Part shown: piece by piece, positions 34,456 to 52,495 of the stretch
How positions within the stretch are numbered: position 1 is the stretch's first letter
How the letters are laid out: each line of letters begins with the position of its first letter
Source: a virus
Virus genome (UHGV): UHGV-1558314
Length of the DNA stretch: 64,000 nucleotides
Direction: 5' to 3' (one strand)
The notes under the pieces: model-generated
Databases searched by the model: none
Seen by the model: the letters and a program-made list of their open reading frames with translations, nothing else
What the model was told of the DNA's origin: nothing
Translations under genes and position numbers: made by a program

Positions 34456-36051
34456 TCAAAGTTTGAATTTTTGCACTTTTGCATCTACTGGCATCTTTTC
34501 AGCGTCATAGATTCGTTTTCGAGCAGCAAAGTGTTGCATGTCATAATTGCAGTAGCAGTAGCCTTTGCGAAGCTTGACAAGCATATCACTGTGAATTGTA
34601 AGCTTATGTGCAATATCAATAATGATTGCTTTCTGCTTAAGTGGATGCTTACGCAACAGTCGCCCAATTGACTGCAATGTTACGTTGTCAGATTTGCCAA
34701 TCATCAAGAATGCAGCATAAAACCAAGCATGCACAGATACGCCTGTAGATAATGTGCCAGTTGTTGCAATCATGATGTGTCTATCAGGCTCTGCTTCCAT
34801 CATTGCAAGCATGTCTTTGCGTTCATGCAAGGGTACATCACCTCTAATGATGTGAACAACCTTGTCAACACCAGACTGCTGTATGAATGTTTGACATGCA
34901 TCATAGATGTTCTGCACATGGTCTCGTCGTTTGCAAAGCACAAGAGCATTTTTGTCAAGCGAACAAATGATTTTTGCAATGAGCTTGTTAGCATCGACGT
35001 AGTTCATGCAATGATGTTGTTCTGCTGGAAGCAGTCTTGCAGTGTTATCAAACACTTCAGGATGCTCTTCAAGATACTGCACAAATGACGCATCATATTC
35101 TGCTGAATGCTCAATGACTACTCGTTTAATTTCAAAGTCAGACACGATGTTCTTTTCGAGTGCTTGAGCTACACCAAATGTACCCAATATTGGCCCAATG
35201 TAAGATTCAATTGTCAAACGAGCTGCAGTGTGCTCAAGTGGCAATGAACCAGAAACTCCAAGACGATAATGAGCTTTTGTGCAATGACTGAAGATTTCAC
35301 GAATTGATGCTGCAGGTGCACCATGAGCTTCATCAGTTACAATGAAGTCGAACTGTTCGAAAAAATCTGCTGGCATATTAACAAGACTTTGATATGTGCC
35401 GACAACCATATCTGCATCTTGCATCTTGTACTCATTGCGAACGCCTGAATGGATTTTGTAGAGCTTGTAGTTCTTGTTTGCTAAATCTGACTCATTTTGT
35501 TGATAGCTGACAACAATATCGTCAAATGCTTGTGACACGAGATGCACCGAGGGCACAATCATAAGTGTTTTGCCATTGATTCTCTTGCTATCTTTTAAGA
35601 AGCGACTAATTACATAAACAAGAGCTGTTTTGCCATAAGAAGTCGCAAGGCGTAAACAGCATTTCTTGAATTTGCAAGCAGTCAAAATAAACTTGAGCTG
35701 GTCGTCACGCATGTCAAATGGCATGTCAAGACATTCTGCCCATTGCTCAAGTTCTTCAAGCGACACAATGCGGTCAAAGTTGTCAATGAGGCCCTCAATC
35801 TTGACTTCGTATGGAATTGGCTTACGCAATTGTAAGTCCCAAATACGCTTCCATAAGCCAAATGGTAGGTATATGCCATTAAACACATAGCAAATTTGCC
35901 CATTCCAATCTGTTTTGCGCCCTTTGCGCTTATTGACTGCTGCTGCAACAAAGTTTGGCACTTCTGCAGTAGCTTCAGCGTATAATTGCTTGGCTTCCAA
36001 ATCATTTGCTTCGACAATCTGAAGCAAATCACCTATGACTTTGAGTCTCAT
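34456..36051 (-). CDS. SF2 DEAH-box DNA helicase (UvsW-like)
   Basis: Walker A LATSYGKTALVYVI, DEAH box FIVTDEAHGAPAA, motif VI LQSIGRLLRKHP. Confidence 0.65.
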   Translation of the reverse strand: MRLKVIGDLLQIVEANDLEAKQLYAEATAEVPNFVAAAVNKRKGRKTDWNGQICYVFNGIYLPFGLWKRIWDLQLRKPIPYEVKIEGLIDNFDRIVSLEELEQWAECLDMPFDMRDDQLKFILTACKFKKCCLRLATSYGKTALVYVISRFLKDSKRINGKTLMIVPSVHLVSQAFDDIVVSYQQNESDLANKNYKLYKIHSGVRNEYKMQDADMVVGTYQSLVNMPADFFEQFDFIVTDEAHGAPAASIREIFSHCTKAHYRLGVSGSLPLEHTAARLTIESYIGPILGTFGVAQALEKNIVSDFEIKRVVIEHSAEYDASFVQYLEEHPEVFDNTARLLPAEQHHCMNYVDANKLIAKIICSLDKNALVLCKRRDHVQNIYDACQTFIQQSGVDKVVHIIRGDVPLHERKDMLAMMEAEPDRHIMIATTGTLSTGVSVHAWFYAAFLMIGKSDNVTLQSIGRLLRKHPLKQKAIIIDIAHKLTIHSDMLVKLRKGYCYCNYDMQHFAARKRIYDAEKMPVDAKVQKFKL

Positions 36052-36065
36052 GACATGACTTGTTA

Positions 36066-36105
36066 AATGAAAAGAGGCTCAGACAAACAATGTCTGTCTG
36101 AGCCT
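36066..36105 (-). terminator. rho-independent terminator after the SSB gene
   Basis: 12-bp stem GAGGCTCAGACA / TGTCTGAGCCTC, followed on the minus strand by TTTTCATTT. Confidence 0.55.
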
Positions 36106-36131
36106 CGAGCATCTTTGATGCGCTTGTACTG

Positions 36132-37265
36132 CTACTTGAGCCCATTGATGAATGCTTCAGTTTCAGCATCCATCGTTGCTGCTGCAGGTGCTGCTGCTGG
36201 AGCTGCTGCAGGTGCAGGCTCTGCTGCAGGTGCTGAAGCTGCTGCAAACGGGTCAATAGCTGTCTGAGCTGCTGGTGCAGTAGCAGGCGCAGCTGCCGGA
36301 GCTGCTGCAGGTGCAGGCTGAGTAGTCTGTGCCTGCTGAGCTGCTGACGAATTGATGACAATGTCAGGCCAGATATCCGACACATCCTTGTAGTTAGCAA
36401 GGCGCATCTTAACCTGACGCTTGATGTCATCAGAAGCTTCGTGGTAGCCCCACTCCTTTTCGACATTCGGGTACTCCTTGAGCATGTCGACAATCTGCTG
36501 CATGATTTGCTGCTTGTATGCAGGGTCAGTGTCATACTTCGCCTGGTCAACAAGGCTGCCATCTGCAAGCAGCATCGACGATACGTTGGGCGAAATCGTC
36601 GAAGTCTCGTAGTCACGCATTTCAACGCCATTGACGTCTTTAAGCGTAATCTTCAAGAGAATGTCGTGGCCCTTAACAGGATGGAACATGTCCATAGGCT
36701 GAGCGCCCATTTGGATGTCTTCGTCGGTCGGCTTCATTGAGCTCAGCATTCTTTTATACAATGCAGCAGGGAGTCGATATGGGAGTACTTTCCCAACGTT
36801 CTCAGGGTGCACTGAATCAGCTTTGATTTGCACGAGGCAAGTGTACTGACTCTGCATACTGAACTCTCGCTTTGCAAGCGCTTCCTGCTGAGCATCCTTG
36901 GTATTGATGAGTTCCCAGTAGAACGCCGAAATGGGGCACCAACCGTAGGGTTTCATCAAATTTTCCGGATTTTCAGGATGCGGATTAGGCGAGCTCGGCG
37001 AATTGTAGCGGAAGCCCTGATTATGGCCAGTTGCAAACCAGTAATAACGAACGATTGAAATCGGTACTGCTGGGTCTGCTAAATTCGGCAATACGCGAAT
37101 AACTGCACGATAAACTTTGTCCTTTGGCGAATCCTGCGGCTTAGGATTGAAGAACTCAGGTCCTGCAGAACGTTCCGGCTTAGCAAAGCTTGCTACATTG
37201 TCCGGCTGGACATCAAAGATTGACAGCGGCTGATTACCGGTCTGTCCATTTTCAATTTGTGACAT
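36132..37265 (-). CDS. single-stranded DNA-binding protein (T4 gp32-like) with Ala/Pro-rich linker
   Basis: RAVIRVLPN and HPENVGKVLPYRL resemble gp32 core segments (AVIRFLPS; APENEGKVFKYRF), recalled from memory. Codon usage is visibly G/C-richer than neighbours. Confidence 0.55.
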   Translation of the reverse strand: MSQIENGQTGNQPLSIFDVQPDNVASFAKPERSAGPEFFNPKPQDSPKDKVYRAVIRVLPNLADPAVPISIVRYYWFATGHNQGFRYNSPSSPNPHPENPENLMKPYGWCPISAFYWELINTKDAQQEALAKREFSMQSQYTCLVQIKADSVHPENVGKVLPYRLPAALYKRMLSSMKPTDEDIQMGAQPMDMFHPVKGHDILLKITLKDVNGVEMRDYETSTISPNVSSMLLADGSLVDQAKYDTDPAYKQQIMQQIVDMLKEYPNVEKEWGYHEASDDIKRQVKMRLANYKDVSDIWPDIVINSSAAQQAQTTQPAPAAAPAAAPATAPAAQTAIDPFAAASAPAAEPAPAAAPAAAPAAATMDAETEAFINGLK

Positions 37266-38553: not shown

Positions 38554-39305
38554 TTCACTTCAGGTTTTGCTTGCTTGGCCAACTCAGCTTCAGCATTGAA
38601 CTCTTTGCCCTCAGCTTTCATTGTTTCAGCATAAGTCTTTTCATCAGTGTAACGTTCTACGTCATCACCAAGCAGTTTTGCAACTTCATCATCTGCTTCA
38701 AACAATGGCTGTGGATTGTCATCATTGTCATCTTTGAGTTGCTCAAATGTGCTGTTATGCTTTTCTGCAATTTTGATGAGGTCAACGATTGAACGAGTTA
38801 CGAGTTCACCATTGATGCCTGACTGTTGTTCAGATTGACCAGAGCCTTGTTGCAATTCTGCTTGAGTTGCTCGAACATTATTATTGAGTGATGCAAGTAC
38901 ATTGGGAAGAGTTCGACAATATGATATATACTGCTGAACCAACGACATTGCATCATTCTGCAGTTTGATGAGAAATGCAAACTCACCCATGCCTCCGCCT
39001 TGTGCATCAATGCGCTCGAATACTGAATCAAGTGCATGCATTGCATAGAACACTTGTTTGCAAAGTAAATTGATGTTTGTCTTCTCCATCTCGATTGATG
39101 CATCGATAAACGGTGACTTAACATCTGCTGCTATGCACAATTTGCGAACTTCGTCAACATATTTTGAACACTTGTCAAGTGTCTTGTCAAGTTTGCTTCG
39201 GTCAAACTGCTTGTAAACTTCTAATGCATCGCTTACTTCTGCAGCATCCAATATTGCATTTGCTGCAGCCAATTCTGATTCTCTGCTCATCTCAAAATGG
39301 TCCAA
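38550..39305 (-). CDS. hypothetical protein (251 aa)
   Basis: ORF track. Confidence 0.45.
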   Translation of the reverse strand: MDHFEMSRESELAAANAILDAAEVSDALEVYKQFDRSKLDKTLDKCSKYVDEVRKLCIAADVKSPFIDASIEMEKTNINLLCKQVFYAMHALDSVFERIDAQGGGMGEFAFLIKLQNDAMSLVQQYISYCRTLPNVLASLNNNVRATQAELQQGSGQSEQQSGINGELVTRSIVDLIKIAEKHNSTFEQLKDDNDDNPQPLFEADDEVAKLLGDDVERYTDEKTYAETMKAEGKEFNAEAELAKQAKPEVK

Positions 39306-39901
39306 GCTTCAATGATTGCTGAAAAATCTTCAAAGGGCATTGTAGTGTAGCCGGAATCACCCCAAGATATACCCCAGCTATTCTTGATGATGAATGAGTC
39401 TTTTGTATAGCCGACAATTGACACTGCATGACCACCAAAATTGCCATCGCCTTTCCAAAAATGCTCAGCATCAATGTCTTTTACGAGCATACCAACAAAG
39501 ACAGGCCCATTTGCTACAACAGCAGATTTGATTTCATCAATTGTGTAGCAACGTCTGTATGCAGTTATTGGCAATTGCTCTGAGCCCTTTGACATTTTGA
39601 TTGGCTGTGCTTTGAGTAGCTTAAAGACGTCACGTGGAATCATGCCCTCTTGAGGCTTATTTGAACGACGCTCATACAATGCTTTGATGTCAAGCTTGCC
39701 TTGCATAGACAGCACAGAAGACCACCAGTCAATCATTGTTGCTGCTGTGTAAGCTGCACACATTGATGTACTGCCTTGGTCTTCTACTTGAAGCTGAGCA
39801 AGCTTATATGCAAGTGGCAAGTCGGTTTTTGCGTCAAAGCGCAAGTCTCTGTCATCTTGTGGTGACTGGATGTAGCCCAGTCCATATGTCATCTGTTTCA
39901 T
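39287..39901 (-). CDS. papain-like (C1 family) cysteine peptidase
   Basis: Catalytic motifs in order: QGSTSMCAAYTAA (Gln...Cys), GGHAVSIVGY (His), KNSWGISWGDSGY (Asn-Ser-Trp). Confidence 0.6.
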   Translation of the reverse strand: MKQMTYGLGYIQSPQDDRDLRFDAKTDLPLAYKLAQLQVEDQGSTSMCAAYTAATMIDWWSSVLSMQGKLDIKALYERRSNKPQEGMIPRDVFKLLKAQPIKMSKGSEQLPITAYRRCYTIDEIKSAVVANGPVFVGMLVKDIDAEHFWKGDGNFGGHAVSIVGYTKDSFIIKNSWGISWGDSGYTTMPFEDFSAIIEAWTILR

Positions 39902-41477: not shown

Positions 41478-42401
41478 TTACATTGAGATGTTAAGAATTC
41501 GCTTGACTACAGAATCGATATCATTGTTTGCAGCATTGCACAGTTCCATGCGAACATTAGAATCAATGAACAAGTTATGAAACGTTGACGCAGCTTGAAC
41601 AAGATGACACCAGATTGCTCGTCTACACATTGCAAGTTCTCTGTCAGCTTTGCTGCATTGCATGAGATACGAGTTTGCTCTATCACTGTAATATGACTGA
41701 GCATACTTGCATTGACGTTCAGCGTCATTTACAATGTACATGTATGGAGTCTTGACGTCAAAGTAAATTTTGCAATACAATGACTTGTCATCAATTGCAA
41801 AGTCATCAATATTGACAGTCAAATCTGTCATTGCATACGTCAAACCTCTGTCATGCAAATATGCAAACATTGCAGTATAGCATTGATGCAATGTAGCAAT
41901 CAATTCACATTTGTCAGTTGACTGAACAACTTTGTATGCTGCTTTGATTGCCTTTGCATATATGAGCTGCAAACACAGCTCTTTGCGACGCAATGCTTTG
42001 CGTTCAAATTGTCGCTCATATTTGATGTGCTTACGTATGCGTTTGCGTTCTGTAAGCAATTTCGACAAGTCAATACGAATGTATTTTGATACATTTGTAA
42101 CAGCGGTGTCAATACTGTGCCACTGTTCAATGTCGTCAATGTCAAGTTCATGCGCAAGTGAATGTGACACTCTGCCGTACATGTATAAGACTTTGCAGTT
42201 GTCATCGCATAATGCATACATACACCATGATGACAGTTCAATGTCATGCTCAAATGTGGCAAAATCAACTTCTACTGCAATATTTGCGTTTGTGCATATG
42301 CATTTTTGAATGTCAATGTCACTTAAGTACCACTTGAAAAATGAATCGACTTCTGCAGAATGTTGACTTATGATGCGCTTGAACAGCTTGTTCGATTTCA
42401 T
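41478..42401 (-). CDS. hypothetical protein (307 aa)
   Basis: ORF track. Confidence 0.45.
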   Translation of the reverse strand: MKSNKLFKRIISQHSAEVDSFFKWYLSDIDIQKCICTNANIAVEVDFATFEHDIELSSWCMYALCDDNCKVLYMYGRVSHSLAHELDIDDIEQWHSIDTAVTNVSKYIRIDLSKLLTERKRIRKHIKYERQFERKALRRKELCLQLIYAKAIKAAYKVVQSTDKCELIATLHQCYTAMFAYLHDRGLTYAMTDLTVNIDDFAIDDKSLYCKIYFDVKTPYMYIVNDAERQCKYAQSYYSDRANSYLMQCSKADRELAMCRRAIWCHLVQAASTFHNLFIDSNVRMELCNAANNDIDSVVKRILNISM

Positions 42402-43587: not shown

Positions 43588-43696
43588 ATATATAATATGT
43601 CAATAAATTTCACATATAAAGTCTTTTCGCTTATGAAAACTACTCAACTCTGGTTTGAACGCCAGCAGTCAATCGCGGGGGGGCTCTTCGTGACAC
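43588..43696. repeat. left arm of a near-perfect inverted repeat of about 109 bp
   Basis: tatataatatgtcaataaatttcacatataaagtcttttcgcttatgaaaactactcaactctggtttgaacgccagcagtcaatcgcgggggggctcttcgtgacac; its reverse complement occurs at 46611-46721 with one small indel. Confidence 0.85.
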
Positions 43697-43749
43697 AGGC
43701 ATGCGCATATACGTGCGTGACAATGCTGATAACATTGTTAATGGGCTAA
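43633..43749 (+). other. short leader ORF (MKTTQLWFERQQSIAGG...) containing a G7 tract, in the +1 frame relative to downstream gene 43701..44333
   Basis: ATG at 43633; G7 at 43677-43683. The gene A frame is open from 43659 through the G tract, so a -1 shift or one extra G fuses leader and gene. Confidence 0.5.
43677..43683 (+). repeat. homopolymeric G7 tract (candidate slippage site)
   Basis: cgcgggggggctc read directly. Confidence 0.9.
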
Positions 43750-44333
43750 CTTGCTATTTGCACTGTATTGAAACAGGTCGAACACTTCAAAGAGACTTGC
43801 ACACAAGCAATAATGGTGATGGCGTCACATTTTACATAACTGGTGATGACTATAAGCAATTAGTCGGCTCAACAAAAGACGCACAATTTTATCTTATTGA
43901 CACGCCTGATGCTGCAGATATGTCTTGGTCATCTGCAGCATTTACACTTAGATATGGCGCAGATATAGTTAACAACACACTAAATGTCAATATTGAAGCG
44001 TTCAAATCATGCGAAGTAACAATAACTAACAGTGGCAATACATGCAGTTGCACCGCAATGCTTGAATCTGCATTGCCAGTGGCAATTAAACTGTCAACAA
44101 TTTGCAATACATCAGTAGCATCTAATGTCGATGTGTCAGTTAACATAGCTGCAAATAGCTTGACTGCTAATTTTAGAGTTGGCAATAGCTTATCTGCAAA
44201 ATTGACGCATGTCGGCATATGGTCTATTGCTAATGCTTCTTATGTTTCACCAATATATGAGGGTGCTATAATTGTGAAAACACTGAACGACATATTTCAC
44301 GTGTTCATAACAGATAAGACAACACTTGGCTAA
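43701..44333 (+). CDS. cassette gene A (210 aa), candidate variable fibre or receptor-binding protein
   Basis: ORF track; first plus-strand gene after the strand switch; starts 5 nt after the IR. Confidence 0.5.
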   Translation: MRIYVRDNADNIVNGLTCYLHCIETGRTLQRDLHTSNNGDGVTFYITGDDYKQLVGSTKDAQFYLIDTPDAADMSWSSAAFTLRYGADIVNNTLNVNIEAFKSCEVTITNSGNTCSCTAMLESALPVAIKLSTICNTSVASNVDVSVNIAANSLTANFRVGNSLSAKLTHVGIWSIANASYVSPIYEGAIIVKTLNDIFHVFITDKTTLG

Positions 44334-44368
44334 GTGTACATATCTTACAACATTCAAACATATAGCAT

Positions 44369-44425
44369 ATGAAAACTCCACAATTTTGGTTTGAGCGTCA
44401 ACAAGGGCTAGCGGGGGGGCTCTAA
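44369..44425 (+). other. leader ORF copy B (MKTPQFWFERQQGLAGGL, 18 aa) with G7 tract
   Basis: Diverged at nucleotide level from the IR copy but conserved as peptide. Stop immediately after the G tract, while the gene B frame opens immediately before it. Confidence 0.5.
44413..44419 (+). repeat. homopolymeric G7 tract
   Basis: gcgggggggctc read directly. Confidence 0.9.
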
Positions 44426-44462
44426 ATTAGTCTACCTGCAACTTGTTATTGGCGACGCTTCG

Positions 44463-44891
44463 TTGTACAACTTTGGCACTACTGAAACAATGGCGATACA
44501 AGGTACAATATCGCTTGACAATGTCACAGTTAACATACCAACGTCAGGCTTTCCTATCAAAATGATGGAATGCCGCGGTGGTGAAACTCATGCAATTGGT
44601 GCGTTAATGATGCCAAAAGCTTATGACTACTCAAACTTTGCTGCAAAAATTGGTTTTGGCTGCTATGCAGCAGATGGTCGTGGCACTGGCAACGTTTACA
44701 ACATCAATGTGTATGCCAACATTAACAACACAAGCCCTGGTGGTAATCCCATACTGTTAACTTCTATGGCATGGCAATATCCATTAGGCGTTGGTGATAA
44801 GCTTACATTGCCAATGTCAAATCCATCTGTCAAAGTTAACAATGGAGATATCGTGTCAATCATACTTAAGAATGCAAGGAAAGTCAGCTAA
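44463..44891 (+). CDS. cassette gene B (142 aa; start uncertain)
   Basis: ORF track uses a TTG start; in-frame ATG at 44490. The frame is open upstream to the G7 tract (RGGSKLVYLQLVIGDASLYNFGTTET...). Confidence 0.45.
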   Translation: MYNFGTTETMAIQGTISLDNVTVNIPTSGFPIKMMECRGGETHAIGALMMPKAYDYSNFAAKIGFGCYAADGRGTGNVYNINVYANINNTSPGGNPILLTSMAWQYPLGVGDKLTLPMSNPSVKVNNGDIVSIILKNARKVS

Positions 44892-44975
44892 CTGACAGAT
44901 GCATCACATATAAGCAATGCTCCACTGAGAAATCTCAGTGGAGCATTTTTTGTGCTGTTTGGCAATTTTAGACAT

Positions 44976-45386
44976 CTATATGCTATAGTATGCCCTATTG
45001 ACAAGCAACACATAGTCACCACACAGTAATGCAGCGTACGACATCATGCAATCATCTTGCGGCGCACTGACATCTGCATATCCTTTTGCGTACATAACCA
45101 TGTTGTTGTGCACAAAGTCAACTTTAGCATTTGCATAAATTGCATCAGTGCCACGGTCAACTATAAATGATTCACCGCGTTCAAGCGCATTTGCATTAAT
45201 TGTCACGGTAGATGTACCAGCATTAATGCTGTACAATGTATTTGGCACAGCATTAATGCTGGTACTTGATACCGTCATAAACTTAGCAGCAAATATGCTA
45301 TCAACCAAATCACCAAATTGTGCTGAGGTGGGTTTATCTCCGGTTTCAAAATACGTTTTGAGTACCGAACGTGTTTGAACTGCCAT
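44976..45386 (-). CDS. tail-fibre-like protein (cassette gene D, 136 aa)
   Basis: N-terminal LKTYFETGDKPTSAQFGDLVDSIF resembles a motif I recall from phage tail fibre/collar proteins. Not searched. Confidence 0.45.
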   Translation of the reverse strand: MAVQTRSVLKTYFETGDKPTSAQFGDLVDSIFAAKFMTVSSTSINAVPNTLYSINAGTSTVTINANALERGESFIVDRGTDAIYANAKVDFVHNNMVMYAKGYADVSAPQDDCMMSYAALLCGDYVLLVNRAYYSI

Positions 45387-45404
45387 ATGTTTCGATGTTT
45401 TAAG

Positions 45405-45587
45405 TTATGCAATGTGACATGAAAGCAACACTGCAAACTTTTCATCGAATGCAATGTCACCTACGTTATAACAAGAGATTGAGCCAGATATGTGACCCCC
45501 CCAATTCAATTTGAATGTCATAAAGCTTATGAGTTTGTAAATGTTTGTTTTGTTTATATATTTTGACTGCCCATATGTACATATCAA
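45405..45587 (-). other. small upstream ORF (60 aa) containing a G7 tract, in frame with and 6 codons upstream of gene D
   Basis: ORF track; ...FKLNWGGHISG... spans the G7 tract. Confidence 0.3.
45496..45502 (-). repeat. homopolymeric G7 tract (C7 on plus strand)
   Basis: gtgaccccccccaatt read directly. Confidence 0.9.
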
Positions 45588-45658
45588 AACAACATCTTAG
45601 TTGTTTTGCATCTTGCATCAAAACAACATCTTAGTTGTTTTGCATCTTGCATCAAAAC
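45583..45658. repeat. tandem direct repeat (34-bp unit, 2.2 copies), each unit containing a 9-bp-stem hairpin
   Basis: atcaaaacaacatcttagttgttttgcatcttgc repeated; CAAAACAAC / GTTGTTTTG inverted repeat inside each unit. Confidence 0.8.
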
Positions 45659-45895
45659 TCATAGGCATTGCATTCAAAGATGAAGATTTTACAGCAGACA
45701 TTGCACTTGATAACGCGTCATTTTATGATGGCCAAACTGCATGGCTAACTGGAAAGCTTCTGGCAGCATTGTGTTAAGTATAAAACAGTTACATTGAAAG
45801 CTAACACAACAGTAAACATCGCCATTTAATGCACATCAAAAACTCCACTGAACAATTAAGTTCAGTGGAGTTTTTGATGTGTAGTGTGCAAAATA

Positions 45896-46549
45896 CTACA
45901 ACATATTCCAGTTTGTTATGTCATACATGTTGAAGCTGAACGCTGATGTGATGTATCCAAGAGTAGTCAAGATGTCCACACCAACTACAGGGTCATTTGC
46001 AATAAGCAAAATACAGTTAGTGACAGACGTATCGACCATATTGTCTGCTTGAAAATCATTGTGCATCAACCAGTCAGCAAAGCAGATGTCATAGTACACA
46101 GGATTGCCTGCAAATACTTTATCATTTCCAAATGCTTCTGATGGGTGCGACAATGTAGATGCAAGCAGTTGAATGTCTTCATCTGTGCAAGACGATTTAA
46201 TGTCATCAAGCACAATTGCTACACGCTGCTCATTTGTCTCTGAATCACCTCTATGAATTTCATGAATCCAAGGCAAGCATGCAAGTGCATCACCACATGT
46301 CAAATTGACATTATCAAGTGTCTCGCCTTGACCTGCGTAGCAATATAAAGTGGAGCCAGTGCCATAACGTAGACAGTCATTTATGCTGACATTATCAAGA
46401 TACACTGAACAAATTGACAATGCACCTGCACCAAGCCTGTTTGCAGGAATTGTCAACTTATATGTTGGCACGCCATTTGACTGCACTGTAATAGGCGAGC
46501 CCGCTAATAATTCACCAGTGTCAGCATCATAGCATTCGACTTCTTGCAT
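45896..46549 (-). CDS. cassette gene C (217 aa), candidate variable fibre or receptor-binding protein
   Basis: ORF track; its frame is open upstream through the IR G7 tract (TPAVNRGGALRDTIISGTINKADGSLLEAAYAT-MQEVECYD...). Confidence 0.5.
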   Translation of the reverse strand: MQEVECYDADTGELLAGSPITVQSNGVPTYKLTIPANRLGAGALSICSVYLDNVSINDCLRYGTGSTLYCYAGQGETLDNVNLTCGDALACLPWIHEIHRGDSETNEQRVAIVLDDIKSSCTDEDIQLLASTLSHPSEAFGNDKVFAGNPVYYDICFADWLMHNDFQADNMVDTSVTNCILLIANDPVVGVDILTTLGYITSAFSFNMYDITNWNML

Positions 46550-46610
46550 AGTCGCATATGCAGCTTCAAGTAGTGAACCATCTGCTTTGTTGATAGTGCC
46601 GCTGATAATA

Positions 46611-46721
46611 GTGTCACGAAGAGCCCCCCCGCGATTGACTGCTGGCGTTCAAACCAGAGTTGAGTAGTTTTCATAAGCGAAAAGACTTTTTGTATGTGAA
46701 ATTTATTGACATATTATATAT
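46611..46721. repeat. right arm of the inverted repeat (reverse complement of 43588-43696)
   Basis: Direct comparison of both arms; includes the leader ORF start (ATG at 46674, minus) and a G7 tract. Confidence 0.85.
46624..46630 (-). repeat. homopolymeric G7 tract (C7 on plus strand)
   Basis: gagcccccccgcg read directly. Confidence 0.9.
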
Positions 46722-46734
46722 CAGGCAGCAATAT

Positions 46735-46775
46735 GCACAAAAAAGAAGAGCATCGGTTAAAAACCGATGCTCTTT
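46735..46775 (-). terminator. rho-independent terminator after BACON-like gene
   Basis: Stem GAAGAGCATCGGTT / AACCGATGCTCTTT, followed on the minus strand by TTTTTTGTG. Confidence 0.55.
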
Positions 46776-46822: not shown

Positions 46823-47437
46823 TTACGATACAGTCCACGGGCAGTTTGCGGTAACCGTAACCGTAACGGCAGGAGTACCGGCCTGAGGAATCGTGATTTC
46901 CTGCTTGTCGAGTACCAGCGTCGGGTCACCAGCAGCCTGAACGATTGCAATCTGAGCAGTCTGGGCACCGTTGGCAGTTACCAAAATCGATGTCGTGCGC
47001 TCGTTAATCGTCAAGTTGGCAGGAATGTCAAGCTCAATGCTGAAAGCAAACTCGGCGTTGGCACCAGGGTCACCAGTGATTGCTACGCCATTGTTGGTTT
47101 CTACACCAGCAACTGCGTACTTTTTAGGCAGTTCGATAACAAACTCGCCGCCCTCAACGATGCTGAACGTCAGCTTCGATGAGTTAGATACACCGGTTAC
47201 GGTAAGAGTACCGCCAGCTTTAGGAGCTGACATCTCTGAGCCGTTGTCAAATGACACGAACTCAGCCTTTGCAGTCTGCTGTACATTGTACGTTGAAGGC
47301 GCTGCAATACCAGCACCCTGAACGGTTACAACACCAGTACGTGCAATACGACCAGTGTGGGCGTCAGCAGAGTTGGAAATTGAACCATTACCCGAACCAG
47401 ATGTCGGGCTAAGTTTCAACCATGCGGGTTTAGCCAT
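46823..47437 (-). CDS. BACON/Ig-like domain protein (204 aa)
   Basis: N-terminus MAKPAWLKLSPTSGSGNGSISNSADAHTGRIARTGVVTV fits the BACON pattern (W-L...SP-x-SG-x-G...R-x-G-x-VTV) and ends ...VTVTANCPWTVS. Codon usage is G/C-richer than its neighbours. Confidence 0.5.
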   Translation of the reverse strand: MAKPAWLKLSPTSGSGNGSISNSADAHTGRIARTGVVTVQGAGIAAPSTYNVQQTAKAEFVSFDNGSEMSAPKAGGTLTVTGVSNSSKLTFSIVEGGEFVIELPKKYAVAGVETNNGVAITGDPGANAEFAFSIELDIPANLTINERTTSILVTANGAQTAQIAIVQAAGDPTLVLDKQEITIPQAGTPAVTVTVTANCPWTVS

Positions 47438-47495: not shown

Positions 47496-48095
47496 TCAAA
47501 GAATTTTCCAAGAAGCGTTTGATGTCAAATTCATTGTGATTGTCGTGCCATCATCATCAACTGTCACAGATTCTGTACTCAGCACAAGAGTTGCTGCAGC
47601 AGCTGCTTGAGTAATGCTAACATTCAATGATTTGCCACCAGGAGTTGTCACTGTCAATACAAATGATTTCTGTTCAATTGTCAAATTTTGCGGTATTGTA
47701 GCTTCAATTGACCATGCAAACTTTGCAATATATCCAGGGTCATTTGCAATTGCTGTGTCATTTGTTGCAGCGACGCCATTTGCTGTGTACGCAGTCGGAA
47801 TGCTAAGATTCGGATTTGTAGTTGCAAACTTAAGTTTTGCTGCGTTAGACTCACCAGAAACAACAATTTTTGTGGTTGCCGCAGAAACATTGTATGATGT
47901 TGTGCCAGATACAAATTCTGCAAGAGCAGCTTGGTTGATTGTTGCTTGCTTTGTAACTGTTGGTGTGGTCTTCGTTTGCACAGTCGCAATTGTGCTACGA
48001 ATGCCTCTGCCGGTATGAGCTCCTGCAGTAAATGCCAGGATATCATTACCCTCACCAGACATTGGTGAACACTGTGCCCATATAGCTTTTGCCAT
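47496..48095 (-). CDS. BACON/Ig-like domain protein (199 aa), paralog
   Basis: N-terminus MAKAIWAQCSPMSGEGNDILAFTAGAHTGRGIRSTIATV parallels 46823..47437 and 48167..52495. Confidence 0.5.
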   Translation of the reverse strand: MAKAIWAQCSPMSGEGNDILAFTAGAHTGRGIRSTIATVQTKTTPTVTKQATINQAALAEFVSGTTSYNVSAATTKIVVSGESNAAKLKFATTNPNLSIPTAYTANGVAATNDTAIANDPGYIAKFAWSIEATIPQNLTIEQKSFVLTVTTPGGKSLNVSITQAAAAATLVLSTESVTVDDDGTTITMNLTSNASWKIL

Positions 48096-48166: not shown

Positions 48167-51100
48167 TTATCGAACAAGGAATGATGTACCAACAACCATA
48201 TTCGGGATTGCCAAGCCATTGCCAGACTGGCTTACTGCAACTGTGCCACTTGTGTAGCCTGACAATGCAGCAGTAATTGTTGCCGACCTGCTGTTATCTG
48301 AACCCCAGTTGTTTGCAGCTGACAATGTCGAACCGCTGATTGTGAATGCACCATTGTTCGATGAGTACGTTGGAGTAACCGCAGCATCTGATGTTGTAGA
48401 CTGACCTGTCGTGTACTTTGTGACAGTTCGACCTGTCGTAGACAATGTTGCAGTGCCACCAGCAGCCCCAAAGCTTGTAACAGTTGAGCTGACAATCAGA
48501 GTCTTCGTAGTCGAAGTCACACTGTTGGCTTCCTGTGTAGCAGTGATTGCTTTTGAGCCAGTTTGACCATTCAACGCAACCGTCATATTGACTGTAGCGG
48601 TTCTTGCAGAACCAGCAGTTGTGCCACGATTTGCAGCAGTCAATGAACCGGTTGTACTACTGTTAAGCGTAAAGCCAGTAGTTGTAGCCATACTGTATGA
48701 AATTGTACCGCCAGATGTAATAGTAGTTTTTGAACCACTTGTGTACGTTGCTGTCTGCGAGTATGCTGGCGTGCCTGTTGGAGTCTTTGTTGCACCTGCT
48801 GCAGCAAATGTTGCATATGATGTTGCTGTAGTAACTGTGACTGCGCTGTATGATACACTGTTAGCTGCTTGATAAACATCAAGAGCTTTTGTAGCAGTCT
48901 TAGACCCTTCACCAGTAGCAGTTGCAGTCAAAGTGCCAATCTTTGTACGAGCTTTGACTGTAGTGCCAAGCGATGATGCGCTGACTTTTGTGCTATACGC
49001 AATGCTAACTGAACCTGGCCTTGTGCTGCCAGACGTATATGTAATTGTCTGTGATGCACTGATGCCAGACATTGATGCAACTTCACCGCCACCAGCAGGA
49101 ATATCTGACACAGTTCCACCAGAAATTGTAACCGCGCCATATGTCGTAATTGCATTTGCAGCTTGGTACACATCGACTGCTTTTGTTCCAGATTTGCCAT
49201 TGACTGTTACTGTAACAGTAGATGTTGTAATCTTTGTGCGGGCTTTAGCAGTAGTGCCAAGTGAACTACCAGACACTGCGCCAGTAGACGTTGTTACACC
49301 AGTGCCAGACCATGATTTGCTGCCACCAGACGTAACTGTCTGTGTTGAGCCACTTGACCACATAACTGATTGACTGAATGACACTGAAGGCGTAACTGAG
49401 CCACCCTTTGCAGGAACATCGCTATAAGTCATCGAAACTGTGGGCGTACCATATGTAGCAGCATTAGCATTTTGAGATGCAGTAGCAGTCTTTGTTCCAC
49501 TGATGGCTTTTGTGCCTGCAGCATTGTATGACGCAGTAGGCGTCCATGTAGCTGTTACAGTCTTTGTGACTGTCAGCGATGTAGTTGCGCCACTTGCAGT
49601 AGTGCCTTTTGATGATGCGGTTATAGCACCAGTAGATGTATTGAGTGCAGTGAACAATCCTGATGCGCCTGGCCAACTATATGATGTTGTAGTTGACAAT
49701 GAACCATACGTAGATGCTGGCGCAGTAGTTGAAGTACTGCCACTACTAAAATGGTATGTTACTGTGTTTGCACCATTTGACGGTGTAGATGTTCCGCCAC
49801 CTGCAGCAATTGCAGGATATGACATCGAACCAACTGCAATATTGAGTGCAGTCACATAGTTGCCTGCCTGATAAATCGTGGCAGACTTGCTGGCAGATTT
49901 GCCATTCATTGTGACTTTAACAGTCAGTGTGCCTGCAGTAGTCTGGTTAGATATTGCGGTGTCTTTTGATTGCGCAGTGACTGTTGACGTATACTCAATT
50001 GTTCCGCCGCTTGTCAGTGTTTCTGTCGTCTTTTCACCAGTAGCATATGTCGTAGTTTTGACCTGCGAGTAAGTTACTGTGCCAGATTTTACAGAACCTC
50101 CGCTTGCTGCAATGATAGTTGCAGACGGCGTCAAGTTAACTGTGATATCGCTATATGTAACTGTGCCAGCAGATTGAGCTGCTTGATAAACATCTGCAGC
50201 TTTTGATGCAGACTTGCCATTGAGTGCTACTGTGACAGTCAATGTGCCAATCTTTGTTCGTGGCTTAACTGTTGTGCCAAGTGATGATGCAGTGATACCT
50301 GCTGCTGGACTGTATGAAATTGTTGCACCAGTAGTGATGTTCTGTGTTGAAGTTGATGTGTATGTTGCAGTCTGCGAATATGACACATTGCCGCTCTTAA
50401 TTGTACCACCAGTTACAGGAATATCTGCTACAGTGAAGCTTGAAATTGTAACTGCGCCATATGACACAGTGTTTGCAACTTGCTTGACTGTGCAAGAACC
50501 AGTTTTTGTAACACCGCCCTCAGTATATGAGCCAGAAATTGTAATGCTGCGTTCTGCGCCTACGACTGTTGTGCGATTTGCTGCAGTTACTGTAGCAGTC
50601 GACAATGTAAAGCCAGTTGCTGAACCGCTAAGTGTTGCAGATACTGCAGCAGATGACGTTGAGCCTGATGCATATGTGTATGACGCTGTTGAAGTGATTG
50701 TAGTTGAACCGCCACCAGCTGCCAATGTTGCAGCGCCAGGTGTCAATGTCAAGCCATTCAGCGTCTTTGAGTTTGCAGTTTGTGTTGCAGTAGCAGTTTT
50801 TGTAGCAGACTTGCCATTGATTGCTACCGTAACTGTGACAGCATTTGAAGCATCAGTAGAGCCTACATATGATGTGCCCATTGACGTTACAGTCAATGCG
50901 CCACTTGTCGTATTCAATGTCCAGCGTGACTTAGCAGTCATTGCATAAGACAATGTAGCGCCACTTGTCAATGTGCCACCTGAGCCAGCTACGCCATTCC
51001 AAGTCCAAACTTGTGAATATGAAACAGTTGGGTTTGATGTACCACCAGCAGGAGCAATGTTAGCATATGAGAATGTTCCAATGACAGGCGTTGCATAGAC

Positions 51101-52495
51101 TTTAGCACCTGCAGCTTGGTTGAACGTAATATCTTTTGATGCAGACTTACCATTTGCAGTGACTGTCAAGGTGACAACAAACCCATTACGTGCAACAGTA
51201 GAATTGTTGTTTGTCACTGTGACATTCAAGCCAGACAAGCTGTAGCCTGTTGCAGCAGTTTTGACGGCAGCAGTCCATATGCCGCCTGACGTGTTACTAT
51301 CAGTTGAGCCGCTGCTGTATGTCATTGACTGCGTAAATGTTGCAGATGCATTAGCTGCAACAGTTTGACCTGCTACTGCAAGAGCAACTGGTGTTGTCTT
51401 TGTAATGACTGGTGTGCCGTATGTAATGCTGTTGGCTGCTTGTGTAATTGATACAGTAGCAGTTGCATTGCCATATGACGCTGTGCCGCTAAATGACCGA
51501 GCATCACCGACAGTCTTACCACGATTTGCAGATGTTACAGAATTTGCAGATATTGTAAAGCCTGTTGCAGTGCCTGTAATTGTTGGCTTGACATTTGTTT
51601 CAGTAGATGTAACAACACCGTTCCATGTCACAGTGTACGTACCAGTGATGGTTGATGTTCCACCTGCTGCAGTATGACTTGTTGAATATGTGTTCAAAGC
51701 AAGTTTGTACACAACTGAACCTGCAGCTTGTGAGCATTTAACGGTCTTCGATAATTCATGACCACTTACAGTCAGTGTTGGTGTAACTGCTGCAGTTGAC
51801 GTGTTGTTCGGTGTATTGACAGTGATTGTTGCAGGACCTGTGCCAGATGCTTTTGAGACTGACCAACCTGCAGGTACGCCCGAAATTGTCCATGCAAAGT
51901 CAGGATTACAAGAAATTGCGAATGTCTTCGATTCACCCTTTGCAACAAATGACAAAGTTTCTGGTGATACTGCCAATGTTGCACTTGCACCAGCTTGATT
52001 TACTGTAAATGTTGCAGACTTGCCACCAGGCGTTGACAATGTGAAAGTGAATGCCTTTGCAGCGATTGCAGTATGTGCAGCAATCTGCACTCGTACAATG
52101 ACTTCAAATTCTGCATTGACACCAGGGTCATTGTCAAAATTTGTATTAAGCGCATAATCTTTGCTTGCAACAGTTACGCCAAGCACTGTGCCACTTGCAG
52201 TACCGCCAGTACTGCCAAGCACAAGTTTTTGTGCATTTGTGACACATTTCAATGTTGCAATAGTGCCACCATTTGACGCAATGTTTGTAGATGCAACTGT
52301 AGCTCGTATAGTTTCACCAGGAGACTCTTGCAATACTGCACAGTTTTCAGTTACTACTGGTGAACCTGTAGTTGTTTGCGCAGTAAAGCTGCCAGACCTG
52401 TTATTTCGACCAGTATGCACAGATGCTTTGACAGACAACTGTGAGTTGCCTGTGCCAACATCAGGTGTAACTGTCAACCAAGTAGGCTTTGCCAT
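48167..52495 (-). CDS. giant Ser/Thr/Gly-rich fibre or adhesin-like protein (1442 aa) with N-terminal BACON-like domain and about eight tandem Ig-like repeats
   Basis: N-terminus MAKPTWLTVTPDVGTGNSQLSVKASVHTGRNNRSGSF; repeated T[L/V]TV-x-x-NGKS-x-[ST]K...YQAAN modules of about 100 aa. Plus-strand ORFs here are antisense artefacts. Confidence 0.65.
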   Translation of the reverse strand: MAKPTWLTVTPDVGTGNSQLSVKASVHTGRNNRSGSFTAQTTTGSPVVTENCAVLQESPGETIRATVASTNIASNGGTIATLKCVTNAQKLVLGSTGGTASGTVLGVTVASKDYALNTNFDNDPGVNAEFEVIVRVQIAAHTAIAAKAFTFTLSTPGGKSATFTVNQAGASATLAVSPETLSFVAKGESKTFAISCNPDFAWTISGVPAGWSVSKASGTGPATITVNTPNNTSTAAVTPTLTVSGHELSKTVKCSQAAGSVVYKLALNTYSTSHTAAGGTSTITGTYTVTWNGVVTSTETNVKPTITGTATGFTISANSVTSANRGKTVGDARSFSGTASYGNATATVSITQAANSITYGTPVITKTTPVALAVAGQTVAANASATFTQSMTYSSGSTDSNTSGGIWTAAVKTAATGYSLSGLNVTVTNNNSTVARNGFVVTLTVTANGKSASKDITFNQAAGAKVYATPVIGTFSYANIAPAGGTSNPTVSYSQVWTWNGVAGSGGTLTSGATLSYAMTAKSRWTLNTTSGALTVTSMGTSYVGSTDASNAVTVTVAINGKSATKTATATQTANSKTLNGLTLTPGAATLAAGGGSTTITSTASYTYASGSTSSAAVSATLSGSATGFTLSTATVTAANRTTVVGAERSITISGSYTEGGVTKTGSCTVKQVANTVSYGAVTISSFTVADIPVTGGTIKSGNVSYSQTATYTSTSTQNITTGATISYSPAAGITASSLGTTVKPRTKIGTLTVTVALNGKSASKAADVYQAAQSAGTVTYSDITVNLTPSATIIAASGGSVKSGTVTYSQVKTTTYATGEKTTETLTSGGTIEYTSTVTAQSKDTAISNQTTAGTLTVKVTMNGKSASKSATIYQAGNYVTALNIAVGSMSYPAIAAGGGTSTPSNGANTVTYHFSSGSTSTTAPASTYGSLSTTTSYSWPGASGLFTALNTSTGAITASSKGTTASGATTSLTVTKTVTATWTPTASYNAAGTKAISGTKTATASQNANAATYGTPTVSMTYSDVPAKGGSVTPSVSFSQSVMWSSGSTQTVTSGGSKSWSGTGVTTSTGAVSGSSLGTTAKARTKITTSTVTVTVNGKSGTKAVDVYQAANAITTYGAVTISGGTVSDIPAGGGEVASMSGISASQTITYTSGSTRPGSVSIAYSTKVSASSLGTTVKARTKIGTLTATATGEGSKTATKALDVYQAANSVSYSAVTVTTATSYATFAAAGATKTPTGTPAYSQTATYTSGSKTTITSGGTISYSMATTTGFTLNSSTTGSLTAANRGTTAGSARTATVNMTVALNGQTGSKAITATQEANSVTSTTKTLIVSSTVTSFGAAGGTATLSTTGRTVTKYTTGQSTTSDAAVTPTYSSNNGAFTISGSTLSAANNWGSDNSRSATITAALSGYTSGTVAVSQSGNGLAIPNMVVGTSFLVR

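Follow-up and report, generated by a model that had tools for sequence, protein, structure and literature searches.

A poly-G leader shared by unrelated genes marks a probable phase-variable contingency island beside the tail-fibre genes of an uncultured myovirus

Simple-sequence contingency loci such as the poly-G genes of Campylobacter jejuni, Haemophilus and Neisseria are familiar in bacteria; among phages, as far as we know and the literature searched shows, experiments have demonstrated phase-variable poly-G genes only in those of Campylobacter. The 64-kb stretch of DNA analysed here (the window) is part of the 175,564-bp IMG/VR contig IMGVR_UViG_3300045988_149023 and contains, between positions 43588 and 46721, a 3.1-kb island of accessory genes that is probably a phase-variable contingency locus. 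The source is an uncultured myovirus with a genome of about 175 kb, in a group mostly infecting Bacteroidota, and the island closes its tail-fibre module at the 3′ end; the literature searched held no report of phase-variable poly-G tracts in Bacteroidota phages. In the Campylobacter phages Fletchervirus and Firehammervirus, hypermutable poly-G tracts make receptor-binding proteins phase-variable (Sorensen 2021, Cell Rep 35:109214, as cited in PMC10579305, PMC8696038 and PMC9311878). Invertible tail-fibre segments are exemplified by the G segment of Mu, with Gin, and the C segment of P1, with Cin (PMC10579305). T4 has diverse internal proteins (PMC3012670) and a capsid-targeting sequence, MKTYQEFIAE (PMC8442874).

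The island is bounded by two inverted arms of 109 and 111 nt that are 97% identical and were located with a repeat finder. They are reported in two pieces (43611-43696 with 46611-46696, 86 nt, 97%; 43588-43620 with 46689-46721, 33 nt, 97%) because a run of adenines differs by 2 nt between them. As an initial annotation of the window had claimed, the arms surround its only strand switch: of the credible genes in 64 kb only A (43701-44333) and B (44463-44891) are on the plus strand, all other long open reading frames (ORFs) being on the minus strand, and between the arms they face D (44976-45386) and C (45896-46549), which read leftward. The ORF map likewise agrees with its account of AT-rich upstream sequence, a leader ORF and seven guanines (G7) in each arm, a diverged third leader before B and a fourth tract before D. 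The features on which the argument depends are these:

43588-43696, plus strand: left arm, with AT-rich upstream sequence (43588-43632), leader ATG at 43633, 44 nt of leader, G7 and the 13 nt CTCTTCGTGACAC.
43677-43683, plus strand: G7 tract of gene A; A is off as sequenced, and fusion needs G8 or a -1 shift.
43677-44333, plus strand: cargo frame of gene A, uninterrupted between tract and stop codon and holding an internal ATG (43701).
44369-44419, plus strand: diverged leader MKTPQFWFERQQGLAGG with ATG at 44369 and G7 tract at 44413-44419, before gene B.
44420-44891, plus strand: cargo frame of gene B (SKLVYLQLVIGD... to the stop), from reading-frame analysis.
45896-46630, minus strand: cargo frame of gene C, uninterrupted between tract and stop codon; a 74-nt spacer separates the tract from an internal ATG (46549).
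46624-46630, minus strand: G7 tract of gene C; C is off as sequenced, and fusion needs G8 or a -1 shift.
46611-46721, minus strand: right arm, an inverted copy of the left arm, with leader ATG at 46674.

The leader of both arms (leader-1) has 17 codons, MKTTQLWFERQQSIAGG, starting at 43633 on the plus strand and 46674 on the minus strand. The G7 tract lies 44 nt beyond the leader ATG in A, B and C, and 19 nt beyond the start codon of a short ORF upstream of D; in leader-1 it provides the last base of an alanine codon plus both glycine codons. With G7, as sequenced, leader-1 continues into short nonsense ORFs at A and C. With G8 or a -1 shift it would instead continue through ...GGALRDT..., where ALRDT is encoded by the 13 nt after the left-arm tract, and, with no stop on the way, take in all of A (233 aa) or C (259 aa). 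The internal ATG of A at 43701 is GTG in relatives. The leader copy of B spans 59 nt and is 76% identical to the arm leader; B is also off as sequenced, and G6 or a +1 shift would yield a leader-B fusion of 173 aa, while a -1 shift meets a stop. The tracts thus lie on the sense strand, as the initial annotation had stated, but within the 5′ part of reading frames, as is typical of contingency loci, and not just 5′ of the genes where it had placed them.

Only four G or C runs of at least 6 occur in the 64 kb, and all of them have length 7: G7 at 43677-43683 and 44413-44419, and C7 at 45496-45502 and 46624-46630, each reading G7 on the sense strand of its neighbouring gene. The remaining G and C runs in the window are three G4, one G5 and fifteen C4. 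A geometric model of run length, fitted to the window, gives expectations of about 0.002 for G runs and about 0.04 for C runs of at least 7, bearing out the earlier claim that no other such run exists and that chance is a very unlikely source. Because the arm tracts are mutual copies and the block around the third tract is 76% identical to the arm leader, independent tract origins number at most three; even granting that three of the four stem from one duplicated block, the presence of four tracts in the island is real and far above chance. More generally, G and C homopolymers are avoided throughout the window, with a probability of G after G of 0.074 and no run longer than 5 outside the island. 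Runs of 6-7 A or T occur 20 times.

Related DNA was collected by an exact-pattern scan with the leader, which gave a sister phage from the same metagenome (contig 152288, loci L003-L005; 93% identical) and four contigs in other metagenomes (L006-L009), and by way of the D protein family, which gave eleven further loci; about 15 contigs were compared overall, all of them consensus assemblies and made with different assemblers. The sister contig terminates inside its cassette, so that its gene E is truncated. The tract lengths among relatives are as follows:

Gene A: 7, 7, 7, 6 and GGGGGTGG (5+T+2).
Gene B: 7, 7 with one extra base, and 8.
Gene C: 7 in four cases and 6 in two.
ORF upstream of gene D: 7 in three cases, 8, 9, 10 in five cases, and GGGGGAGGGG (interrupted).
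Gene F, which is absent from the window and has the leader MQIPRNWGG: 9, 10 in four cases, and 11.

Orthologous tracts in these contigs therefore span 5-11 while their flanks are conserved. The closest pair of relatives, L015 and L016, shows no substitution over 7.6 kb and differs only in the F tract (9 versus 10) and in the copy number of a 34-bp repeat. Alleles whose phase gives a full-length protein also exist in nature. P0016 is a leader-C fusion of 259 aa (MKTTQLWFERQQSIAGGALRDTIISG...), P0030 is a leader-A fusion of 233 aa, and in L017 gene A is in frame by way of the interrupted run GGGGGTGG, a substitution expected to make the on state more stable. The sister phage joins B in frame to another leader (MNITMNWGG-SKLVYLQ..., found also in P0032) and has F on at G9. 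Gene calls fit the same series: those for C within one 90% cluster are 217 aa in about 67 contigs, 251 aa in about 9 and 259 aa in 1, corresponding to G7, G6 and G8, and those for A within its 90% cluster are 206-212, 225 and 233 aa, corresponding to the same tract classes in the same order. The sister island also contains, at L005:10514-11548 on the minus strand, a gene absent from the window that encodes a predicted lipoprotein of 333 aa, whose signal peptide has a cysteine followed by acidic residues; it has six SxDGxxW (BNR/Asp-box-like) repeats and an in-frame G8 tract at its 5′ end.

The frame that a tract change would open bears the marks of selection. In the 74-nt spacer of C, compared over six C sequences, six of the seven variable sites fall at third positions of the fusion frame (chance about 0.007), with one at a first and none at a second position. 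In the gene bodies, variable sites at third, first and second positions number 54, 20 and 16 for C and 36, 19 and 16 for A, a codon-position bias expected of ORFs under selection and not of pseudogenes. Within the WFERQQ stretch of the leader, all four differences between two leader versions are synonymous. As judged from these substitution patterns, the leader-cargo fusion protein is apparently the selected product. The proposal of a contingency locus operated by homopolymer slippage, made in the initial annotation, is borne out by the polymorphism of orthologous tracts, the in-frame alleles of A and C, the L015-L016 pair and the coding-type evolution of the spacer. The island has every property of a contingency locus that can be tested by sequence, and it lacks the key properties of a Mu-type switch and of a frameshift site.

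According to the contingency reading, the cargo genes would have no dependable start of their own and would be translated from a short portable leader module, made up of upstream expression signals, an ATG, 7-17 codons and a poly-G tract encoding Gly-Gly. Slipped-strand mispairing during phage DNA replication would add or remove guanines, placing each cargo in or out of the leader frame. The genes would switch one by one and independently of each other, so that a phage population would hold mixed expression states. Switching within one population may proceed at a high rate, the cargo proteins are presumably virion or host-interaction proteins, and the benefit may be bet-hedging against variable hosts.

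Several observations weigh against this reading. Leader-1 sites are mostly off, with G7 at 13 of about 20 sites read, and C is on in about 1 of 77 contigs where free switching should put about one third in frame. A tract of G7 is short for a fast contingency tract. Homopolymers are prone to sequencing error, and heterogeneity within populations is read here from differences between assemblies. The tract upstream of D leaves the frame of D unaffected, and D is not switched through leader fusion. A, B and C, like E and F, belong to no recognised family, resemble no protein of solved structure and gave no usable model. The main difficulty is that the G7 off state dominates the assemblies while the genes are under purifying selection. 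A speculative extension that would account for purifying selection on off alleles, and that is itself doubtful, makes the promoter-leader-poly-G block a portable plug-in module for expression and recombination that captures unrelated cargo, a viral analogue of an integron or shufflon attachment site. The common N-terminal tag would direct each cargo to one place in the virion, and G7 would hold nearly every cargo silent in nearly every genome. A rare G8 or locked form of each cargo would already be present, and -1 recoding at G7, at a low level, might sample the whole set at once. If correct, this would be a new organisational principle for bet-hedging of host range or anti-defence functions in phages.

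The nature of the cargo admits a rival that concerns its function and not the switch. The leader could be a virion-targeting tag comparable to the T4 capsid-targeting sequence, and the cargo could be proteins that are packaged and injected to counter host defences. The layout invites the comparison, as unrelated small proteins share a short N-terminal leader and upstream signals in the manner of T-even internal-protein loci; the leader begins MKTTQLWFER where T4 has MKTYQEFIAE, the phage has T4-type replication genes such as gp32, and selection acts on WFERQQ at the level of the peptide. But only 4 of 10 residues match the T4 sequence, just MKT-Q being shared, B works with two unrelated leaders, and the island ends a tail-fibre operon beside D, with its predicted fibre-docking fold. 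On this balance the targeting tag is unlikely.

The cargo sequences themselves give few indications of function. BLASTP detects no similarity among A, B, C and D, in keeping with the earlier description of the products as mutually unrelated, and all four are rich in asparagine, threonine and serine. No meaningful family emerged when A, B, C, D, E and F were compared by sequence with Pfam, PHROGs and PDB; a match of C to designed Kelch proteins was dismissed, as it consists of a single blade-like segment of 30 residues. Exhaustive HMMER comparison of A with 1.84 billion representatives returned its own cluster, one paralogue of 32% identity behind the same leader, and otherwise only a weak repeat match.

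A different account of the G7 off state is programmed recoding, which the initial annotation had offered beside slippage. The G7 tract would then be functional: a fixed small fraction of ribosomes would shift -1, or RNA polymerase would stutter, giving low constitutive levels of A, C, E and H fusions as in tail-chaperone frameshifts. G7 is the modal length at leader-1 sites, G GGG GGG is an X XXY YYZ heptamer phased with the leader frame from which a -1 shift yields full A, C, E and H, and cargo and spacer are under purifying selection despite the off consensus. However, the sequence downstream of the tract has no structure that is conserved or unusually stable (minimum free energy z-scores of -0.28, +0.97 and +0.67), no Rfam element was matched, and the homology of the arms stops 13 nt past the run. 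B at G7 needs +1 and is stopped by -1, and neither B nor the ORF upstream of D has a phased heptamer from which -1 gives the long product. The run length is not invariant as at a recoding site: G6, G8 and an interrupted 8 occur, along with 9-11 at other sites, and genuine G8 and locked in-frame alleles occur naturally. Programmed frameshifting is thus not needed and lacks a stimulatory structure, and as the full explanation it is distinctly unlikely; some -1 recoding may nevertheless form an extra layer on G7, because the heptamer is correctly phased for A and C and G7 is the commonest length.

The leader block apparently also serves as portable homology, through which the segment between the arms is inverted, genes between direct copies are deleted, and cargo and leaders are exchanged. 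Its copies are 62-109 bp long and 97-100% identical. The 44 nt of leader DNA are identical in 14 copies from 10 contigs, and cargo differs by 5-8% between contigs. Leader-1 precedes A, C, E, H and P0110, and in L018 it also precedes B. Gene A is deleted in both L018 and L021, with different crossover points, and B has exchanged its leader in the sister phage. Three independent assemblies of relatives, L014, L015 and L016 (contigs of 128 kb, 174.6 kb and 176 kb), terminate inside the island just beyond a D-family gene, which suggests that population heterogeneity or repeats there caused the assembly breaks.

Recombination between the arms could also be a switch in its own right, an invertible segment of the Mu G or P1 C type in which flipping the 3.1 kb would choose the gene pair to be expressed; the initial annotation had named inversion as its alternative. 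Inverted arms do bound two converging gene sets, and in L007, a contig of a different sample, gene C adjoins the left flank, as in the inverted orientation, while about ten other contigs share the orientation of the window. The arms are 97-99% alike compared with about 93% for orthologous DNA between strains, which suggests ongoing exchange. However, L007 is a contig of 5x coverage whose join passes through the 110-bp repeat, and it may be a mis-join. An inversion of the arms cannot act as a Mu-type switch because each arm has its own start codon and upstream sequence; the arms carry the leader too, a terminator stands before the right arm, a flip leaves the expression joins unchanged, and no promoter with a constant 5′ gene part lies outside the segment. 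No Resolvase or Phage_integrase match was found in the 47 ORFs of the window, where four genes to the left of the cassette have no Pfam match. The inversion seen in one contig is therefore taken to be one product among several of general homologous recombination between leader copies, since the arms are self-contained, no recombinase domain was found in the window ORFs, arm polymorphisms are shuffled among contigs instead of being fixed around a single core, and several relatives are without the right arm and C. An invertible switch is very unlikely. Among the window ORFs there is no reverse transcriptase domain, and among the repeats no template/variable pair, that would indicate a diversity-generating retroelement, the scans having been general ones and not directed at such elements.

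It is extremely improbable that the genes are decaying pseudogenes compounded by homopolymer sequencing or assembly error, with the G runs as chance features of a duplicated promoter region: no leader-1 gene of the window is in frame, and homopolymers do invite error, but cargo and spacer have a third-position bias, the same tracts appear in independent assemblies from different assemblers, an in-frame allele is fixed in L017 by substitution inside the run, and G runs are extremely depleted elsewhere in the window.

Gene D differs from the other cargo and is accompanied by its own short ORF:

44976-45386, minus strand: gene D, a member of a hypervariable family of proteins of about 140 aa with an invariant N-terminus of 33 aa.
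45405-45521, minus strand: ORF of 38 codons upstream of D (MTFKLNWGGHIS...), with ATG at 45521 and the fourth G7 (45496-45502).

The upstream ORF is in the frame of D and ends with a TAA stop 18 nt ahead of its ATG. Its tract might tune D through translational coupling, a suggestion made with low confidence. The D protein family comprises 43 clusters, and relatives carry tandem D-like genes with identical first stretches of about 100 nt. The predicted fold of D, two helices and a beta-sandwich, resembles the docking domains of tail fibres and tailspikes. The structure prediction proposed in the initial annotation as a check for fibre folds was thus informative for D; for C, the single-sequence AlphaFold model was unusable (predicted local distance difference test score of 41). 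The related idea that the island encodes alternative receptor-binding modules is supported for D alone, by its predicted fold, A, B and C being orphans for which a receptor-binding role is plausible from position and composition.

The remaining features of the island are chiefly repeats and hairpins:

44916-44947: hairpin with a 14-bp stem between the convergent genes B and D, resembling a terminator when read on the plus strand.
45583-45650: two exact 34-bp tandem repeats, each with the 9-bp inverted repeat CAAAACAAC-N6-GTTGTTTTG.
45832-45881: perfect hairpin with a 22-bp stem downstream of gene C, from the repeat finder.
46746-46774, minus strand: terminator-like hairpin and T run that end the upstream BACON/fibre operon, directly before the right arm.

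The 34-bp tandem repeats are found upstream of the D leader, in intergenic DNA between divergent genes, and vary in copy number among relatives, as between L015 and L016. They may act as an operator or as some other regulatory element of variable length. Between these repeats and the terminator of C is a small plus-strand ORF (45601-45777, 58 aa; 54 aa as called by the Joint Genome Institute) with neither leader nor tract. It occupies the position where relatives carry the poly-G gene F, and may be a remnant. The adenine run in the 5′ untranslated part of the arms (43612-43620 and 46687-46697) ranges from A3 to A5 (CACATATAAAG, CACATACAAAAG, CACATACAAAAAG) and differs between arms and among contigs regardless of the gene that follows. 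A sigma-70 promoter scan found nothing in the arms above chance level, the phage having its own sigma-like protein, and Rfam and tRNA searches found nothing relevant.

The island follows three BACON-headed fibre-like genes on the minus strand, confirming that it adjoins genes of this kind: 46823-47437, 47496-48095 and 48167-52495, encoding 204, 199 and 1442 aa with a common N-terminal domain (MAKPxWL...HTGR). Pfam BACON matches the 204-aa and 1442-aa proteins, the latter below the cutoff; the 199-aa protein has no Pfam match and is grouped by its N-terminal sequence. The 1442-aa protein is a long repeat protein rich in threonine, serine and alanine. On the other side of the island, an orphan minus-strand ORF (41478-42401, 307 aa, no Pfam match) is polymorphic for presence at 41602-42377 of the window: it is present in the window, L011 and L021, and cleanly absent from the sister phage, L007, L008, L017, L018 and L020.

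As for lineage, a DNA search against 50,697 cultured phage records gave no match, and the flanking proteins of 103 and 204 aa, looked up by exact sequence, were found only in the source contig and in fragments. The baseplate wedge protein is about 25% identical in amino acid sequence to those of Chryseobacterium, Tenacibaculum, Prevotella (Lak) and Flavobacterium phages and Sphingomonas phage PAU. The phage encodes gp32-like, SbcCD-like, helicase, thymidylate synthase, dCMP deaminase and sigma-70-like proteins; the window also has two matches to thymidylate synthase, a papain-like peptidase (39287-39901) and two matches to exostosin-like glycosyltransferases. The GC content rises locally to 0.505 at 36001-37000, compared with about 0.40, within the gp32-like gene (ORF 36132-37265).

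As a probable contingency island, the locus extends poly-G switching to a distant, uncultured lineage of large myoviruses in a group that infects Bacteroidota. If the cargo affects adsorption or evasion of defences, a single metagenomic "species" would be a mixture of functionally different particles, which bears on the prediction of host range, on the design of phage therapy, and on how frameshifted "pseudogenes" and contig breaks in viromes are read. The leader-tract module could also be used in engineering as a compact stochastic switch.

The locus resembles that of the Campylobacter phages in that the length of a G run sets the frame of lytic-phage genes associated with host recognition, and populations would be phenotypically mixed. 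It differs in phage lineage and host phylum (the nearest cultured relatives being about 25% identical in amino acids), in the predominance of the off state, and in that the tract belongs to a portable promoter-leader module of many unrelated cargo genes, gathered in one island with inverted bounding copies. With the contingency loci of bacteria it shares a homopolymer near the 5′ end of the ORF and, on the contingency reading, independent stochastic switching of several genes and combinatorial phenotypes, the bacterial genes being surface-related; unlike them it is encoded by a virus, its tracts are short (7-11) and several genes have one identical leader. Like the Mu G and P1 C segments, it is a segment of about 3 kb bounded by inverted repeats, adjoining tail-fibre genes and holding two converging gene sets, and L007 may be an inverted isolate; unlike them, it has no constant gene part or promoter outside, no invertase gene was found in the 64 kb, and its repeats carry complete start signals, so that orientation should not matter. 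The internal-protein loci of T-even phages are similar in having unrelated small ORFs in polymorphic sets, behind the same expression signals and short N-terminal leader, in a shared block that can shuffle cassettes; work by Repoila et al. from 1994 is said to have found that the shared leader acts as recombination homology. The T4 leaders have no homopolymer switch, the location and the likely virion compartment differ, and the similarity of the leader peptides is limited to MKT-Q. Compared with all of these, the present locus is new in that a portable promoter-leader-tract module serves many cargo genes, that this module also provides homology for recombination, and that it occurs in a new lineage.

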